A stretch of 12,909 nt of DNA from IMG/VR virus record IMGVR_UViG_2579779007_000005; one strand, given 5' to 3'. The DNA is from a virus. Lineage: Duplodnaviria; Heunggongvirae; Uroviricota; Caudoviricetes. The notes beneath the pieces are model-generated. The model ran no database searches. It saw only the letters and a program-made list of their open reading frames with translations, and was not told the origin of the DNA. The translations under genes were made by a program, and so were the position numbers. Below are positions 7,560 to 12,909 of this stretch, one piece after another (the stretch's first letter is position 1; each line of letters begins with the position of its first letter).

Positions 7560-8066
7560 ATGAATTTAAGCGCAATGGCATACCCTGATACTTTCATAAT
7601 TAATGGCGAATCATTCAGAGGTAAAAGAAACGCAAAAGAAAACAAGGTATTAATTCCATATACAAATGAACCGGAAGTAACTATTGGTCAACACATTATC
7701 CAGCGTGTCGGTAAAAACGAGATAAATCTAAAAATTATAGATATGAAGTTGCTTCCCAATGGAACCCTCAGACAGGGAACCAACCATCCAAATATGTTGA
7801 CTCTCTATATTGAAAATATCACGGGAAATGAACATATGACGCCAACTAAAAGTAATACATTTAACATTGGTTCAATTAGTGGTGATCAAGTGCAGATAGG
7901 TGAGCATAACCATATGCTGGTAAACATCAGCATCACTGAACTGGTTGAAAAAGTCGCTAAATCGGGGGATGTACAAGCCAAATCAGTATTAAAGCAGTTA
8001 CTGGAAAACAGTACCGTTGCCAGCATTGTTGGGGCTGGCGCAAGTGCCCTAATAGGCTTACTGTAA
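7560..8066 (+). CDS. AT-rich cargo gene of unknown function (168 aa) with a C-terminal hydrophobic Gly/Ala-rich tail; candidate accessory or defence-type effector
   Basis: ATG 7560 with AAGGA SD at a 6-nt spacer. It is the only substantial plus-strand gene in the island and is visibly more AT-rich than its neighbours. The C-terminus STVASIVGAGASALIGLL looks like a glycine-zipper membrane segment. It is bounded by its own promoter region and a terminator. Confidence 0.7.
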   Translation: MNLSAMAYPDTFIINGESFRGKRNAKENKVLIPYTNEPEVTIGQHIIQRVGKNEINLKIIDMKLLPNGTLRQGTNHPNMLTLYIENITGNEHMTPTKSNTFNIGSISGDQVQIGEHNHMLVNISITELVEKVAKSGDVQAKSVLKQLLENSTVASIVGAGASALIGLL

Positions 8067-8101: not shown

Positions 8102-8350
8102 TTACCGTTTCACGGGATCGCGCATTCTGCGCCTTATTTTCCACAGATATTCGATCATTGCTTCCACCTGCTCACGGTTGGTTGCGAAAATTTCCCCGGT
8201 CAGTGAGCTACGCAGAAAATCATGATGATCCACAAAAAACAACGCATCGGAAGAAAGCAGACGGCGATATTTTTTTGCTGTCATGGTTTCCAGATCATCA
8301 AAATCATGAAACTTTTTATGTTGCTGGACTTCTTCAAATGTCACTGGCAT
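8102..8350 (-). CDS. Hypothetical protein (82 aa)
   Basis: ATG 8350-8348 preceded by a G-rich SD (minus strand CAGGGGGGGG); stop at 8102, followed by a hairpin terminator at 8073-8093. Confidence 0.5.
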   Translation of the reverse strand: MPVTFEEVQQHKKFHDFDDLETMTAKKYRRLLSSDALFFVDHHDFLRSSLTGEIFATNREQVEAMIEYLWKIRRRMRDPVKR

Positions 8351-8367
8351 GCCCCCCCCTGTTGTCG

Positions 8368-8793
8368 CTAAAACGGTATGTTGTCCCCGTACGGATCATC
8401 GTGCTGACCCGTCTGCTGTTTTGCCCTGTTCAGTGCGTCAGTCGCCTGGTTCTGCTGGCCTTTTTTGCCGCCTGGTCGCACCGTTCGCGCACTGATTACG
8501 CTGTCTGCGATAACCTGCCAGCCTTGCCGAGTTTCGCCGTTCTGGCCTGTCCACTGACTTACCTGCATGTTACCCGCCACGCTCACCAGTTCGCCTTTGT
8601 GGTGTTTTGCCAGTGCTTCGGCCTGTCTGCCAAACGCCAGAACAGAAAGCCACATCGTCACCGCACCATCATCAGCCTGACTGCATGGCAGGGGTACTGC
8701 CATACTTACCATCGCCATTTGTGTACCCTTGCTGGTGGTCTTTAACTGCGGGTCATTTGCCAGCCGCCCGTAAGCGGCTATCTGTGCTGTCAT
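8368..8793 (-). CDS. ssb: Single-stranded DNA-binding protein (SSB)-like, 141 aa
   Basis: ATG 8793-8791 with GGAGGG SD. OB-fold-like N-terminal segment (IAAYGRLANDPQL...WLSVLAFGRQAEALAKHHKGELVSVAGNMQVSQWTGQNGETRQGWQVIAD), a Gly/Gln-rich linker, and a C-terminal ...DDPYGDNIPF resembling the SSB acidic DDDIPF tip. Confidence 0.65.
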   Translation of the reverse strand: MTAQIAAYGRLANDPQLKTTSKGTQMAMVSMAVPLPCSQADDGAVTMWLSVLAFGRQAEALAKHHKGELVSVAGNMQVSQWTGQNGETRQGWQVIADSVISARTVRPGGKKGQQNQATDALNRAKQQTGQHDDPYGDNIPF

Positions 8794-9035
8794 GATTCCA
8801 TCCCTCCGGTGTTAACGTTGATGGTTGTCACCTGTTCCGCTTCGGCAATCTCCCGCTCTGTCAACGTGGCAAAATTTGCCGCCGCCGTGGTCATTAATGC
8901 GCTTATCAGTTCGGGATGTGCTTTCGCGTATCCTTCCCCGGCGTTGCGGTCGATGATTTTTATCGACACCCTTAACCAGTGTTCCGTCAAATCAAGAGCG
9001 TGCGATTGTGATTTTTTTGTGTGCTTCGCTGTCAT
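8790..9035 (-). CDS. Hypothetical protein (81 aa)
   Basis: ATG 9035-9033; its stop overlaps the SSB-like ATG (8793) in an ATGA arrangement, implying translational coupling. Confidence 0.5.
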   Translation of the reverse strand: MTAKHTKKSQSHALDLTEHWLRVSIKIIDRNAGEGYAKAHPELISALMTTAAANFATLTEREIAEAEQVTTINVNTGGMES

Positions 9036-9080: not shown

Positions 9081-9310
9081 CTTCACCTGTTCACCTTTTG
9101 ATATTTTCTCTTTTAATTCATAATGTTAATTGGTGAACAGTTTCACAAAAACTATTCACCAACTGTTCACCACTGTTCACCCTTGAAGCTCAATAAACAA
9201 TCAAAAAGGTGAACAGTGAATAGTTTGGTGAACAGTTCATAAATAACTGTTCACCCTATAATATACTGATATAAAAGATATTTATGACAGGGTGAACAGT
9301 GGTGAACAGT
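9081..9310. repeat. Iteron array, candidate origin of replication
   Basis: Nine perfect copies of the 9-mer GGTGAACAG or its complement CTGTTCACC: plus-strand CTGTTCACC at 9087, 9163, 9173 and 9247; GGTGAACAG at 9132, 9208, 9227, 9291 and 9301. Degenerate copies at 9081, 9152 and 9217. AT-rich spacers (for example 9256-9290) separate them. The array sits directly downstream of the primase/helicase stop. Confidence 0.6.
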
Positions 9311-9322
9311 TATTCCATAAGT

Positions 9323-11140
9323 TTAATTTTTGCTATCGTCATTAGTGACCGATACACATGATGGCATCCAGTCTTCTGATTCCTCCGTCAGTGTCACGTT
9401 TGAACGCAAACCGTGCTTCGTTTTCCGTTTCATATACTCCCTGCCATATTCCGCCATTGCCCCCGGCATATCTTTACCGAAGCGCGTCAGTGTTACAGGT
9501 TTACCAAACCCATGTGCCCTCATATAAGCCAGATAGGCATGATAGAGATACCTGCGTGGGCTGAATGGCACAATTTCAGCATTACCCACTAACAGGCCAT
9601 CACACATTACCGACGCCATGAGATAGCCGCAGAAGTCCACCAGCGAATCCCCCTCTCGCTTTATCGCCAGTGCTTCTTCAGATTTCTGCTGCTCATATAA
9701 CAGGCGTCTGGCTTCGTCCTGGTTAGCAAACCGTGTAAGCAGATGGCGAATCACTACCGCCAGCTCACCTTCTATTTTTTCCGCCAGCATTGGATCACGT
9801 TCGTTCTCCGGTACAACTTCCGAAAAATTGAATATCACCCGACGACGTGAGATCCCCCCGCTGCGGTCACTGAATGACATGGCGTTATTGTTAACCGCCA
9901 GCACTACTGCCGGAATACGCGTTGAGTAGGGGGCTTTGTGTTTCGGGTCAATTGCCACCTTGTCACCGCCTGTAATAGCCTTAATCCCTGCCCCATCACC
10001 AGCGTAGCGGGTCATATCCGGCATGATAATCAGCGAAAAGCCAACCACTAACGCGCGTTCCCTTGCATCTTCCAGCGCCTTCATGCTTGCCGATACTGTG
10101 TTGGCCTTACCCGCCAGCATGGTGCAAATCTCCGCCATCACGCTTTTACCACTTCCCCCTGGACCTGTTACCTCAATGAATAACTGCCAGTCGTACCGGT
10201 TCGCCAGCACCATGAATAATGCAGCCAGTACGCGATCCGCCTTGCGGTCATTCTCAGCCACCGAACGGCGTAACCACTTCCAGAAATTCGGCGCATGTGT
10301 TGCCAGCGTTTCCCCCTCTGCTGGTGGGCTGAAAGGTAATTCACTGGCAATTAACAACCAGTCGTTTTTGTTATGCTCCCGAAAATTACCTGTTCTGGTA
10401 TCAAATACCCCGTTACTGAATCCAATCAGGTTACGGGCTGTATTCCCCATTACAGGCAAACTTAACTTCATGGTATCGACCGCCGATTTAATGGCGTTCT
10501 GCGAATAGCTGATCTCCGCATCAATGAAAATCTGTGCCATAGCTCGCTGTAATTCTTTATCCTGTACTGGCTCCCATACAACGCCGTTGTAATGGTGAAC
10601 AGTGTCAGAGTCAGCATGAATCGCCAGTTCACCGCCATAATGTGCCAGGAGAACTTCGCCGCGTTGACTTGCTCCCATCTGGTTAAGCGCCAGTGATGAA
10701 GCGTTATCGTCTTTTACCCGCTCTTTTTTCTTTACAGGCAGTTCAACTACCTTTTTCTTTTCCGCCTGCTCTGCCCGTTCACGTTCCAGATATTCGCGCC
10801 AGTTCTCCCGTTTCTGGCTGTGCATTCCTTCAGGGTAATAATCAGCATCCCTGACACCTGCCACTGCCAGTTTCTGCCCGATGGTATTAACAAGCCCCGG
10901 ACGCAATAACCCCGCCTGATAGAGACGCACGCGATAGCGTCCGTCCGGTACGATTTGCAGGTTGTCCAGTTCGGCAAGTTGTTGCTCTCCAAGCCAGACA
11001 GGTGGCACGTTATCGCCAGCCAGTCGCCCGTCCTGTTCCTGCCACTGTTTCGCATGTGCCCACGCATCACTACCCGCAAAAATGATGACTTCCGTCATTT
11101 TGTCACGCGGCTGGTGTTTTAAATTTGGCGCTTTTTTCAT
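9323..11140 (-). CDS. P4-family primase/helicase-type replication protein (D5-like NTPase C-terminal domain); 605 aa
   Basis: Walker A GPGGSGKS and a Walker B-like LVVGFSLIIMPD are typical of the phage/plasmid primase P4-family C-terminal domain. The ATG at 11140 has a GGAGAG SD and ATGA coupling to the upstream gene, and is preferred over the GTG at 11155 listed in the ORF track. An iteron array lies immediately 3' of the gene. Confidence 0.85.
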   Translation of the reverse strand: MKKAPNLKHQPRDKMTEVIIFAGSDAWAHAKQWQEQDGRLAGDNVPPVWLGEQQLAELDNLQIVPDGRYRVRLYQAGLLRPGLVNTIGQKLAVAGVRDADYYPEGMHSQKRENWREYLERERAEQAEKKKVVELPVKKKERVKDDNASSLALNQMGASQRGEVLLAHYGGELAIHADSDTVHHYNGVVWEPVQDKELQRAMAQIFIDAEISYSQNAIKSAVDTMKLSLPVMGNTARNLIGFSNGVFDTRTGNFREHNKNDWLLIASELPFSPPAEGETLATHAPNFWKWLRRSVAENDRKADRVLAALFMVLANRYDWQLFIEVTGPGGSGKSVMAEICTMLAGKANTVSASMKALEDARERALVVGFSLIIMPDMTRYAGDGAGIKAITGGDKVAIDPKHKAPYSTRIPAVVLAVNNNAMSFSDRSGGISRRRVIFNFSEVVPENERDPMLAEKIEGELAVVIRHLLTRFANQDEARRLLYEQQKSEEALAIKREGDSLVDFCGYLMASVMCDGLLVGNAEIVPFSPRRYLYHAYLAYMRAHGFGKPVTLTRFGKDMPGAMAEYGREYMKRKTKHGLRSNVTLTEESEDWMPSCVSVTNDDSKN

Positions 11141-11436
11141 TTCTGCTCTCTCCACGCGGCAATCATGTTTTTCAGTTCCTGTAGTTTTTTATCAACATCC
11201 ATACATGACACATGGTTATTTCTGGAAAGCGGGATTTCCCGCCTGAATCTGCTAATAAAGATCTCCACGTTCAGCGAACTATGAAATGAATAGCCATCAC
11301 GAATAAAATACACACGGTCAAACATCAGTTCTTTTACCGTTACTCTGTTACCGTTCTTATCCAGATAAATAGCGCCGGGGATAATTTTGGGGTGTGCATA
11401 ACCGCTGGCAGTCAAGCCAGATAAATATGTTCTCAT
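11137..11436 (-). CDS. Hypothetical protein (99 aa)
   Basis: ATG 11436-11434 lies 6 bp after the upstream stop, with a GGGGA SD-like sequence. Its TGA (11139-11137) overlaps the primase ATG (11140-11138) in an ATGA arrangement. Confidence 0.55.
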   Translation of the reverse strand: MRTYLSGLTASGYAHPKIIPGAIYLDKNGNRVTVKELMFDRVYFIRDGYSFHSSLNVEIFISRFRREIPLSRNNHVSCMDVDKKLQELKNMIAAWREQK

Positions 11437-11442
11437 GATTAT

Positions 11443-11763
11443 TTATCCCCGATTTGAATCAGTATTCGCTTTCTTTATGGCATTTAATGCATCTGTGGCA
11501 TTTTCAATGGTGCACCGTAACGAAATATCAAACTGCCCAAGCATTGCCAGTAACAAACCGATATTACCCATATCAATGCGCATAGCCTTTTCGTCATAGT
11601 CCTCATTTTCTGACGCATGCCACATCAGGCTACCAATTGACGCAATACCCATTGATATATTGTCAGTAGCCCCATCCGCAGCGGAATAAACCTTTTTAGC
11701 AATATCATGCTCACAGTTAAAATGCGGATTAATCAGGTACTGGTAATTTGACATATCAGGCAT
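11443..11763 (-). CDS. Hypothetical protein (106 aa)
   Basis: ATG at 11763 overlaps the stop of the upstream 67-aa gene (translational coupling); stop TAA 11445-11443. No recognisable motif. Confidence 0.55.
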   Translation of the reverse strand: MPDMSNYQYLINPHFNCEHDIAKKVYSAADGATDNISMGIASIGSLMWHASENEDYDEKAMRIDMGNIGLLLAMLGQFDISLRCTIENATDALNAIKKANTDSNRG

Positions 11764-11959
11764 GGCACACCCCCTGACGAATACGGGCGGCGAATACCAT
11801 CACGCAGCCAGCCGGGGATTGCTGGCGTGCTTCCTGTTCGCTGGTGGCCACGATGTGAATCACGCGCGGTTGTGCGGTGCTCAGGGCGATAAAACGCCAG
11901 ATGTATTTATTCAGGTCGTGCGAGTCCCGCCCTTGCGGGTGTGTGGTATGATTTCTCAT
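11756..11959 (-). CDS. Hypothetical small protein (67 aa), first gene of the minus-strand early operon; faintly reminiscent of Icd-like small proteins found near primases in P4-like islands (unverified)
   Basis: ATG 11959-11957 preceded by GAGGT SD; stop TGA 11758-11756 overlaps the ATG of the next gene at 11763. This is the only credible part of the 306-aa track ORF 11756..12676. Confidence 0.45.
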   Translation of the reverse strand: MRNHTTHPQGRDSHDLNKYIWRFIALSTAQPRVIHIVATSEQEARQQSPAGCVMVFAARIRQGVCHA

Positions 11960-12055
11960 AGCTACCTCGATACGCTTTCTATCGTTGGTGGTTAGAAGCC
12001 CGGTTAGTGTTAGCGCACTGCCGGGTTTCGTCGTTTCTGCACCTTGCATCAACAA

Positions 12056-12108
12056 GGTGTTAAACACCAATTTAAGCCTAGGTGTTAAACACGTCAAGTG
12101 TTGAACAC
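12056..12108. promoter_or_regulatory. Three near-palindromic operator sites (GTGTT-N-AACAC) in the divergent intergenic region
   Basis: GTGTTAAACAC at 12057-12067, GTGTTAAACAC at 12082-12092 and GTGTTGAACAC at 12098-12108. The third overlaps the candidate -35 of the RHH promoter. Confidence 0.5.
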
Positions 12109-12129
12109 TTATTTTTTTTCCTGCATACT
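12101..12129 (+). promoter_or_regulatory. Candidate sigma70 promoter of the RHH gene
   Basis: -35 TTGAAC (12101-12106), 17-bp spacer, -10 CATACT (12124-12129); lies about 30 bp upstream of the ATG at 12159. Confidence 0.3.
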
Positions 12130-12158
12130 GCATTTGTTTTTTGTAAGGGGTACACAAC

Positions 12159-12338
12159 ATGGCGACAAAAGCAGTAAACGCAAAATCACAAACAGTTGCG
12201 GCAAGGGTTCCGCATGAAGTTATGAACAATGTTGAGGCGGTAAAAATGCCTGGTGAAAGTACAGGGCAGTTTGTAACAGCAGCATTAAAGCGAGAAGTTG
12301 AATACCGCCAGCGTCGCAAGGCCAAAGAGCAGGAGTAA
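12159..12338 (+). CDS. Small ribbon-helix-helix (Arc/CopG/MetJ-type) DNA-binding protein, putative repressor; 59 aa, below the ORF-track cutoff
   Basis: ATG at 12159 is preceded by SD AAGGGG (8-nt spacer) and an in-frame TAA at 12144-12146; stop TAA 12336-12338. The sequence TVAARVPHEVMNNVEAVKMPGESTGQFVTAALKREVEY fits the RHH pattern (beta-strand with R-V-P, helix A, G-x-S/T turn, helix B). Three palindromic operators lie directly upstream. Confidence 0.5.
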   Translation: MATKAVNAKSQTVAARVPHEVMNNVEAVKMPGESTGQFVTAALKREVEYRQRRKAKEQE

Positions 12339-12395
12339 CCATCACCAGCGCCGTGGTGCGGTGAACTGTGGCGCACAGGGTTACAGGTATCTACG

Positions 12396-12575
12396 ATGAC
12401 TGACAAATCATTAAAGAAATTATCCTCATCCAAGAAAAAACAACGCAAAAATGCGGTAAACGAACATGAACCGGAGAGATTCGCACCATGTGCGTTTATC
12501 CTTGAGAAGTACCTTAAAGAGTATTCTAGGAAAATACGCTCATTGCAGGCATGGCAGCGAATCGAGCCAGACTGA
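12396..12575 (+). CDS. Hypothetical small basic protein (59 aa), possibly co-transcribed with the RHH gene
   Basis: ATG at 12396 with only a weak AGG SD; stop TGA 12573-12575. It lies between the RHH gene and a plus-strand terminator at 12640-12667. Lys/Ser-rich N-terminus; no recognisable domain. Confidence 0.25.
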   Translation: MTDKSLKKLSSSKKKQRKNAVNEHEPERFAPCAFILEKYLKEYSRKIRSLQAWQRIEPD

Positions 12576-12639
12576 TAGCATTGCCCACCAGCCAACAACC
12601 TGGTATTCTGGATATGCTCAAGTTTAGTGTTATGCCACT

Positions 12640-12667
12640 GGCGACCGCCCTTGGTCGCCTTTGTTTT
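12640..12667 (+). terminator. Rho-independent terminator for the plus-strand RHH transcript
   Basis: Stem GGCGACC (12640-12646), loop GCCCTT, stem GGTCGCC (12653-12659), followed by TTTGTTTT. The minus strand has no T-run after the same hairpin, so it is probably unidirectional. Confidence 0.5.
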
Positions 12668-12684
12668 ATGTGTCATAGCCCCCC

Positions 12685-12909
12685 CTACGCTGCCTTACCT
12701 GAATTAACGCGGTCACGGCTTTGCACCCAGTCCATAACTTCGGAAAGCAACCAGCCTACAGAACGCCCCCCAAGATTACGGCGAGACGGAAAGCCCCCTT
12801 TCTTCTCCAGTTCGTAGCGTGTAGTACGGCTGACGCCTGTTAACTTACGACATTCATCCTCACGAATTACGCGATCTGTTAGTGATTGAAATTGTGTATT
12901 TTGATTCAT
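12685..12909 (-). CDS. alpA: AlpA-family (Xis-like winged-helix) transcriptional regulator; its ATG is the last 3 bases of the window, so the N-terminus could extend beyond the edge
   Basis: 74-aa ORF ending at TAG 12685-12687. The segment LTGVSRTTRYELEKKGGFP...GGRSVGWLLSEVMDWV matches the HTH plus Trp-containing wing pattern of prophage AlpA/Xis-like regulators. It sits at the head of the replication genes, as in PICI-type islands. Confidence 0.7.
   Translation of the reverse strand: MNQNTQFQSLTDRVIREDECRKLTGVSRTTRYELEKKGGFPSRRNLGGRSVGWLLSEVMDWVQSRDRVNSGKAA

Follow-up and report, generated by a model that had tools for sequence, protein, structure and literature searches.

Sequence evidence for a one-way terminator and a translatable read-through path from alpA in the control region of a P4-related phage-inducible chromosomal island

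Introduction

In a P4-related phage-inducible chromosomal island (PICI), does transcription from the regulatory gene alpA pass through an operon that points the other way and is closed by its own terminator, and so reach the early genes beyond it? The question is raised by a stretch of 12,909 nucleotides of viral DNA (IMG/VR record IMGVR_UViG_2579779007_000005; hereafter the window, whose positions are used throughout), this 12.9-kb sequence being identical to a chromosomal island of Escherichia coli A41 that lies beside rcnR with the order int - DUF6387 - alpA onwards in its RefSeq context. The promoter of alpA lies outside the window; alpA itself heads the minus-strand read-through unit considered here. 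Between it and the early genes two short genes are read from the plus strand towards alpA, one encoding a protein of the YlcI/YnfO family (termed RHH-like, for ribbon-helix-helix) and the other a small basic protein, ORF2 (ORF, open reading frame). The genes, their convergent layout and a hairpin between ORF2 and alpA were found as an initial annotation of the sequence had described them; it had proposed that the hairpin stops the plus-strand transcript and spares that of alpA, which could then run antisense through the RHH-like gene and its operators into the early operon, with transcriptional interference as a possible element of the induction decision.

The reading favoured here, at a probability of roughly 0.6, is that of a P4-type two-promoter control region with a backwards RHH-like operon, a one-way terminator and translated read-through from alpA into the early genes. 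Gram-negative PICIs have been called unidirectionally transcribed and the presence of a global repressor in them has been said to be unclear (PMC6092414, PMC10111431), whilst the region after alpA is known as the "Bro zone" and its genes have been assigned to a Bro-N network (PMC10111431). Pfam matches and the RefSeq annotation of the identical locus give int, alpA, a primase and a module of capsid, portal, protease, HNH, terS and terL genes, and there are no tail or lysis genes among the ORFs or Pfam matches of the window. On this gene content the window represents the control region of a PICI that forms capsids and is related to P4, the capsid-forming family having been described previously (bioRxiv 10.1101/2022.09.08.507074). 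For comparison, 12 annotated loci and 80 IMG/VR loci were collected (with ORF2 as the query, genome contigs yielded one locus and IMG/VR 80), individual loci being cited by L numbers where they have to be told apart. Sequences related to 12330-12700 are present in 1655 of 5426 complete E. coli genomes.

A predicted terminator that faces one way

The hairpin stands 65 nt beyond the end of ORF2 and 25 nt from the alpA stop codon (coordinates of all features are collected in Table 1). Its stem, GGCGACCGCCCTTGGTCGCC, has 7-8 base pairs, six of them G-C (RNAfold), and a 61-nt context folds at -19.7 kcal/mol (z = -3.8), none of 200 shuffled sequences folding equally well. On the plus strand the stem is followed by TTTGTTTTAT, and on the minus strand the sequence 3' of the same stem is AGUGGCAUAACAC (also read as AGTGGCATAAC / AGUGGCAUAAC), with no U-run, the U-tract being limited to the plus strand. 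The assertion that a T-run is present on that strand alone is therefore borne out, and the asymmetry extends well beyond the window: a canonical terminator for the RHH strand was found in 42 of 44 distinct variants of the spacer between ORF2 and alpA, drawn from E. coli genomes and IMG/VR contigs. The hairpins that keep this orientation are of several kinds unrelated in sequence. A terminator for the alpA strand was found in only five of the 44 spacers and in none of the 39 canonical variants, and in all five exceptions a distant alpA-like gene (31-38% identity) is accompanied by a terminator of its own. Because the orientation is kept in 42 of 44 spacers across unrelated hairpins, the one-way design is, by the comparison of sequences, a selected feature and not an accident of the window allele.

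Apart from this hairpin, a scan of the minus strand from alpA to the early operon gave no convincing terminator, the only candidates being an operator palindrome and, at 12214..12197, a stem of 5 bp that closes a loop of 8 nt. The proposal that the RHH transcript is stopped and the alpA transcript spared accords with this asymmetry and its conserved orientation, termination itself being predicted from the sequence. An Rfam search of 12340-12700 returned no known RNA beyond noise. A 20-nt similarity between 12004-12023 and 12624-12643 was considered as a target pair resembling seqA/seqC and was rejected, as no covariation was seen and the mean alignment score was 6.6 for matched and 6.8 for mismatched allele pairs.

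The five exceptional elements (L028, L029, L038, L046 and L065, all IMG/VR contigs) carry the strong terminator of their alpA-like gene 14 nt past its stop codon, and in them a long open frame begins only ~590 nt or more downstream, making them natural exceptions to the read-through layout.

The open frame beyond alpA

A long ORF begins directly after alpA on the same strand. It crosses the hairpin, continues antisense to ORF2 and to the RHH-like gene, takes in the operators and promoters and the leader, and then enters in frame the icd-like gene that heads the early operon. This path, absent from the initial annotation, appears to be a conserved translatable ORF. At its head stand a Shine-Dalgarno (SD)-like run and an ATG, a candidate site of translational coupling, and the arrangement (TAA-AGGGGAG-CAT-ATG in the common allele) is shared by L002-L005, L008 and L009. 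Within 11960-12676 the frame contains no stop codon, as against 14 and 17 in the other two minus-strand frames. In a null model in which the codons of both plus-strand genes were resampled and the non-coding parts were dinucleotide-shuffled, the mean was 6.9 stops and the probability of none ~0.001, the non-coding parts contributing most (P ~0.002). No other unannotated ORF in the window exceeds 165 aa.

Of 68 distinct relatives, 42 have one frame open across the entire interval and in phase with the icd-like gene. In most of the remainder the frame extends over the antisense of both plus-strand genes and over the promoters, and is lost, by a stop or a change of frame, some tens of nucleotides short of the icd-like start. 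The frame has stayed open through non-homologous replacement of operators, terminators and RHH alleles and through insertions of 130-400 nt. In islands of Xenorhabdus, Proteus, Pectobacterium and Serratia, located by means of RHH homologues, it contains 0-1 stops, compared with 16-29 in the other frames. The RNA of the alpA strand is C-rich and G-poor at ~12400-12200, with a C/G ratio of up to 1.85, a composition like that of Rho utilization (rut) sites, so that selection against Rho-dependent polarity is a credible cause of the frame's having stayed open.

Transcription along this path can be followed in a relative. EcCICFT073 has the same layout, with alpA, a backwards ORF2 and YlcI/YnfO gene, and then an icd-like gene, and its alpA-strand frame is open for 428 codons; the "ORF3" of that island is this open frame. 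When the published primers were mapped, reporter pJP1288 was found to end at the alpA stop and pJP1290, which on this mapping is taken to be the "ORF3" fusion, to end within ORF3 at position 10200 of L013, 486 nt past the alpA stop and beyond two hairpins in the antisense orientation. Expression of pJP1290 was alpA-dependent and was induced by the helper phages lambda and phi80 (PMC6092414). In EcCICFT073 on a plasmid, alpA-strand transcription thus continues through the hairpins for at least 486 nt past alpA. AlpA is known from relatives as a helper-induced, self-activating master activator (PMC6092414), and helper activation of alpA has been described in relatives elsewhere as well (PMC11773190). 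The initial proposal that alpA transcription runs through the RHH-like gene and the operators into the early operon is to this extent supported, in that the path shows no convincing intrinsic terminator on the minus strand and the reporter of the relative is transcribed along its first part, short of the RHH gene and operators. Much as in P4, alpA transcripts can probably run through the terminator into the early genes and be translated as they do so.

The same observations have to be set against other explanations. It is conceivable, although on balance unlikely, that the terminator is an insulator and nothing else, shielding alpA and int from transcription of the RHH operon, in which case alpA transcripts would die early through Rho or through pausing at the hairpin, AlpA would act in trans on the early promoter or on the repressor, and the long frame would be a relic of a P4-type eta. 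An early operon with a sigma-70-like promoter of its own, an AlpA that binds DNA and activates its own promoter at the least (PMC6092414), the rut-like stretch in the alpA-strand RNA and the alpA-like gene with its own terminator in the five variant elements are all in keeping with such an arrangement. A relic, however, would not remain free of stops through repeated changes of operators, terminators and insertions, or across five genera. The SD sequence and ATG directly after alpA are conserved; in addition, the EcCICFT073 reporter records AlpA-dependent transcription on the far side of two hairpins.

That the long ORF encodes a functional protein of the Bro network or of the Eta type, with a C-terminal Icd/Kil domain, and that selection acts on this protein and not on anti-polarity, is improbable. 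The zone after alpA has been treated as one of Bro-N network genes (PMC10111431), the versions in CFT073, Proteus and Pectobacterium have Bro-N- or AntA-like segments upstream, Eta of P4 is a named gene product and the C-terminal Icd-like domain is real. Yet no Pfam or PHROG family matches the 239 residues ahead of the icd-like part. They are encoded by promoter, operator and terminator DNA that is not homologous from one allele to another, so that the protein sequence there is not conserved, and in 26 of the 68 relatives the frame departs from that of the icd-like gene. A Bro-N domain in the long ORF of the window was rejected on the same lack of Pfam and PHROG matches, and the "BRO-N" pseudogene called in L003 by the annotation pipeline PGAP probably reflects reference proteins that extend into the long frame, as in CFT073.

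Lower still must be rated the explanation that the hairpin terminates in both directions in vivo, alpA and the RHH operon being convergent units with a terminator in common. Such use of a single hairpin by two convergent genes is frequent in E. coli and in the window allele the stem is perfectly symmetric, but on the plus strand no A-tract precedes the stem, so the minus-strand RNA lacks a U-tract, and with the start codon of the long ORF 14 nt upstream of the stem ribosomes would cover it. In other alleles U-G pairs of the stem become A-C mismatches on the alpA strand, and the CFT073 reporter passes two hairpins of this kind.

The naming of the alpA-strand frame in RefSeq is inconsistent, ranging from a 247-aa hypothetical protein (O157:H7) through Icd-like proteins of 67-246 aa to partial Icd-like and BRO-N pseudogenes, with examples at L007 1080-1823, L002/L003 927-1331, L008 324-1064, L003 1502-1757 and L010/L011.

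The plus-strand genes and their operators

The RHH-like protein matches the NCBIfam model with 59.7 bits against a curated cut-off of 30, and ORF2 is found at full length in relatives with 52-78% identity (tblastn). The ratio of non-synonymous to synonymous substitutions (dN/dS, Nei-Gojobori) is lowest in the genes' own frames, at 0.32 for ORF2 and at 0.24 and 0.22 for the two length classes of the RHH gene, compared with 0.34-0.49 in the long minus-strand frame and 0.7-2.7 in the remaining frames. Because of these ratios, the NCBIfam and PHROG matches and operators that co-vary with the RHH allele, the plus-strand genes are, on the evidence of the sequences compared, real. The converse notion that they are artefacts of annotation, that the minus-strand ORF alone is real and that the hairpin is incidental is rejected as highly improbable, since, although PGAP sometimes annotates the minus strand (a 247-aa O157:H7 protein, Icd-like over 134-246 aa, and Bro-N pseudogenes), it would have to accommodate the dN/dS values, a YlcI/YnfO match at E 2e-16 with homologues across Enterobacterales, the operator covariation, and good SD sequences, a positioned -10 and a terminator on the plus strand.

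The RHH-like protein occurs as 25 protein alleles, which differ chiefly in the N-terminal segment and share a conserved C-terminus, and operator sequence follows this allele and not that of alpA. The clearest case is L005, in which alpA is identical to that of the window, the RHH protein is 44% identical and the repeats are entirely different. The three palindromes overlap both predicted promoters, that of the early operon on the minus strand and that of the RHH gene on the plus strand; the -10 of the latter, (C/T)ATA(C/T)T, keeps its place in other alleles. This pattern fits that expected of an immunity repressor acting on divergent promoters, and the YlcI/YnfO protein is the candidate for that role.

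The label "RHH" given in the initial annotation is plausible in the light of the YlcI/YnfO match, and one of the homologues across Enterobacterales is named a CopG-like RHH protein by UniRef, but confirmation of the fold was not obtained. The AlphaFold monomer (pLDDT 78) is all-helical (residues 19-28 and 35-58) with an N-terminal segment of low confidence, neither Foldseek nor a PDB profile search gave a PDB match, and a permissive Pfam scan gave only sub-threshold hits.

Several further observations concern these genes. The YlcI/YnfO proteins (alleles of L005, L009 and others) fall into classes of 59 aa and 101 aa, the longer having a 42-residue insertion before the conserved basic C-terminus. 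ORF2 is often unannotated in RefSeq, the record identical to the window included, and it was not called in the elements of Xenorhabdus, Proteus, Pectobacterium and Serratia, where it is apparently missing, no search aimed at it having been made there. A hairpin between the RHH gene and ORF2 is clear in O157:H7 (L007 1390-1416, plus strand, z -2.4) and not significant in the window (12342-12386, plus strand, z -0.7).

Table 1. Positions of features in the control region, with allelic types of the terminator
Feature	Position	Strand	Basis and remarks
alpA	12909..12685	minus	Pfam Phage_AlpA PF05930, E 4.8e-16; PHROG 2790 "excisionase and transcriptional regulator"; 45% identity to P4 Vis, E 5e-18; stop codon TAG at 12687-12685
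SD-like G-rich run and ATG of the long ORF	12674..12686	minus	AGGGGGGG; ATG at 12676-12674; 9 nt after the alpA stop
Long Eta-like ORF, 306 codons	12676..11756	minus	ORF list and translation; C-terminus matches NF033153, as does P4 Eta
Predicted intrinsic terminator of the RHH-ORF2 operon	stem 12640-12659, T-tail 12660-12669	plus	GC-rich hairpin and T-run
Terminator, window type			GGCGACC..GGTCGCC + TTTGTTTTAT
Terminator, O157 type			GGCGGCTCC..GGGGCCGC + TTTTTTTAT
Terminator, CFT073 and L010 types			tandem hairpin pair
Conserved 16-nt motif	12578-12593		GCATTGCCCACCAGCC; directly 3' of the ORF2 stop; in 10/10 spacers compared, including those with unrelated terminators
ORF2, conserved basic protein (59 aa)	12396-12575	plus	second gene of the plus-strand operon; PHROG 21027, E 5e-30
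YlcI/YnfO-family small DNA-binding-type protein, RHH-like (59 aa)	12159-12338	plus	NCBIfam YlcI_YnfO_N NF041551, E 2.1e-16; PHROG 949
Predicted RHH promoter	12101-12129	plus	TTGAAC-17-CATACT; putative, read from the sequence, below the threshold of the scanning tool
Predicted early promoter (PLE analogue)	12097..12069	minus	TTGACG-17-TAAATT; consensus match; -35 position conserved among alleles; inside the long ORF
Three 13-bp palindromic operators	12056-12109		GGTGTTAAACACC (12056-68), GGTGTTAAACACG (12081-93), AGTGTTGAACACT (12097-109); one repeat family
Candidate cis-antisense small RNA (~80 nt) against the icd-like ribosome-binding site	11944-12040	plus	extended -10, two hairpins, T-rich terminator tail
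icd-like gene (67 aa), P4 kil homologue	11959..11756	minus	NF033153, E 5.4e-20; first early-operon gene; forms the in-frame 3' end of the long ORF
Primase of D5/P4-alpha type	11155..9323	minus	50% identity to P4 alpha

The icd-like leader

A candidate small RNA opposite the leader of the icd-like gene has an extended -10, TGgTATGAT, at 11944-11952 (TGgTATAAT in several alleles), and a terminator hairpin at ~11995-12029, the fold having a free energy of -36.5 kcal/mol (z = -4.4). In a comparison of 16 alleles, three base pairs of the hairpin have changed in a compensatory manner and many others are G-U, which on the other strand would be C-A mismatches. The Rfam model SymR (RF01809) scored 32.8 bits on this RNA, a weak resemblance below its gathering score of 61, although the structure is conserved and specific to one strand. 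If the RNA is genuine, it would act in cis on the icd-like gene, as the CI RNA of P4 and the C4 RNA of P1 act on kil and icd. The relation of the icd-like protein to P4 Kil came only from the NCBIfam profile, a tblastn search of phage records giving a single match, which was not P4.

Comparison with P4 and other systems

The resemblance to P4 extends to gene order as well as to AlpA and the primase, for which the identities to Vis and alpha are those in Table 1. Kil (E 1.6e-21) and the icd-like protein of the window match the same model, NF033153, and in P4 kil is the in-frame 3' end of the eta ORF (8812..8168), which starts at the vis stop, the icd-like gene being nested likewise at the end of the long ORF. 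The early promoter of P4 lies inside the long ORF, upstream of kil; the predicted one of the window, a match to consensus only, would have the corresponding place upstream of the icd-like gene. In P4 the translation of eta lets helper-activated PLL transcripts pass the terminator that is under immunity control (PMC10111431, summarising Forti et al. 1999). P4 differs from the window in that the latter has a backwards RHH-like gene and ORF2, closed by a one-way terminator, within the eta-like ORF, protein operators that vary with the allele on the early promoter, and a candidate cis-antisense RNA on the kil-like leader. The C4/CI and isrK/seqA RNAs are absent from the window (Rfam, even at E up to 10) and from the nine other loci searched, whereas the same search detects both in P4 and in L008.

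The last of these loci, from E. coli CREC-629, has the RHH-operator module and the P4-type C4/isrK RNAs in tandem (567-755) inside one open frame of 456 codons, and this hybrid is evidence of the swapping of immunity modules within the eta-like ORF. The RHH-like gene appears to replace, or to supplement, the CI RNA immunity of P4. The read-through principle is already known from P4. In the literature examined on these islands no account was found of the backwards module, the operators or the one-way terminator.

Other Gram-negative PICIs, such as EcCICFT073 and the capsid-forming EcCIEDL933, have the order int-alpA-...-primase-ssb followed by capsid, protease, portal, HNH, terS and terL, and EcCICFT073 and the O157:H7 element share the backwards RHH-ORF2 module. 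In the immI system of phage P1 the translation of icd governs transcription of the downstream genes and an RNA targets the icd ribosome-binding site. The window resembles the P1/P7 immI (c4 RNA - icd - ant) in that a small gene of the Icd family heads the operon; it differs in that the P1 regulator RNA is processed from the same strand, whereas the candidate of the window would be a separate transcript of the opposite strand, acting alongside a protein repressor. At the pR/pL promoters of coliphage 186, opposing promoters give transcripts that overlap across a regulator gene and the stronger, induced one can suppress the other. The likeness to the window is one of analogy only, the overlap here being ~500 nt and including two whole genes, with one direction guarded by a terminator and the other, it is proposed, by translation. 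The Stl/Rpr-Str systems of Gram-positive PICIs (SaPIs) likewise have a repressor gene divergent from the operon that it controls, with operators between them, but the proteins are unrelated, the repressor gene of the window points towards int and alpA and is antisense within the long ORF, and in relatives of the window induction needs the activator AlpA and not only an anti-repressor. The antiterminator mechanism of the Pseudomonas aeruginosa AlpA was considered and rejected, this being a larger, 21Q-like protein with no stated relation to Phage_AlpA, so that the shared name is a coincidence.

A proposed switch

The two-promoter reading can be set out as a switch whose basis is the anatomy of the region, its conservation, the homology to vis, kil and alpha and the allele-specific operators, with AlpA dependence and helper induction taken from relatives only; the steps that we infer are that the RHH protein represses, that translation counters polarity, that the read-through transcript gets as far as the early operon and that it interferes with expression of the RHH gene. 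In the quiescent island the RHH-like protein, made from its own plus-strand promoter, would bind the three operators over the -35, the -10 and the start of the early promoter, keeping the icd-like (kil) gene and the replication genes off, and the plus-strand transcript of the RHH gene and ORF2 would halt at 12640-12669, so that no antisense RNA runs into alpA and int. On induction a helper phage would turn on the alpA promoter and AlpA would activate that promoter further. The minus-strand polymerase would meet a hairpin without a U-tract and continue, and ribosomes that terminate on alpA would restart at the SD sequence and ATG 9 nt downstream and translate the frame of 306 codons, their passage preventing both the formation of the hairpin and the loading of Rho on the C-rich, G-poor stretch. 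The read-through transcript would then reach the early operon whatever the state of the repressor, as do PLL transcripts of P4 with their translated eta. Convergent passage over the RHH promoter, together with antisense RNA to the RHH-ORF2 message, could lower the synthesis of the repressor and so lock the switch.

A number of considerations weigh against this scheme. For the present element the case rests on sequence, and both promoters are matches to consensus only. Hairpins that lack U-tracts can still pause polymerase or terminate it in part, and a repressor on the operators could block its passage. Reporter pJP1290 represents a different allele, carried on a plasmid, and ends 43 nt short of the ORF2 stop, hence before the RHH gene and operators; an AlpA-activated promoter downstream of alpA would explain it equally well. 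The long frame ends or shifts before the icd-like start in 26 of 68 relatives, which implies that fusion in frame is not essential. The wobble positions of the minus-strand frame coincide with those of the plus-strand genes, and its intermediate dN/dS is for this reason silent on the question of translation. Finally, the RHH fold and the DNA binding are putative, and the predicted monomer is all-helical and matches nothing in the PDB.

Other features of the window

The remaining minus-strand genes, identified from ORFs, Pfam and RefSeq annotation, are a DUF4222 gene, ssb, an HK97-type capsid gene, and those for the protease, portal, connector, HNH, terS and terL. A dense iteron array, GGTGAACAGT / ACTGTTCACC in both orientations, occupies 9084-9315 downstream of the primase and is likely to be where replication of the island starts. 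An ORF of 168 aa on the opposite strand (7560-8066, plus), situated between ssb and the capsid module, may be an accessory gene. At 35-169 on the minus strand there is a partial match to the thiamine pyrophosphate (TPP) riboswitch aptamer (34.3 bits, where the gathering score is 54.3; E 0.0012), without the central helix; the site belongs to the AT-rich left end, beyond terL, and the match may be due to chance or to flanking chromosomal sequence.

Conclusions

The analysis presented here explains why automatic annotation of this zone is inconsistent, and the layout of the control region is present in at least four other genera besides that of E. coli. From it there emerges a concrete circuit, comprising a candidate repressor and its operators, a one-way terminator, a read-through path homologous to eta of P4 and a candidate antisense RNA. 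It may be, though this is put forward tentatively and the odds are rather against it, that the master repressor of Gram-negative PICIs is the 59-aa YlcI/YnfO protein, its gene embedded backwards with ORF2 in a leader ORF that is kept open only for the escort of ribosomes, in which case read-through from alpA would both bypass the repressor and silence its gene in a switch of the flip type. Islands of this kind transfer virulence and defence genes, and there is work under way to engineer them into vehicles for delivery and diagnostics.

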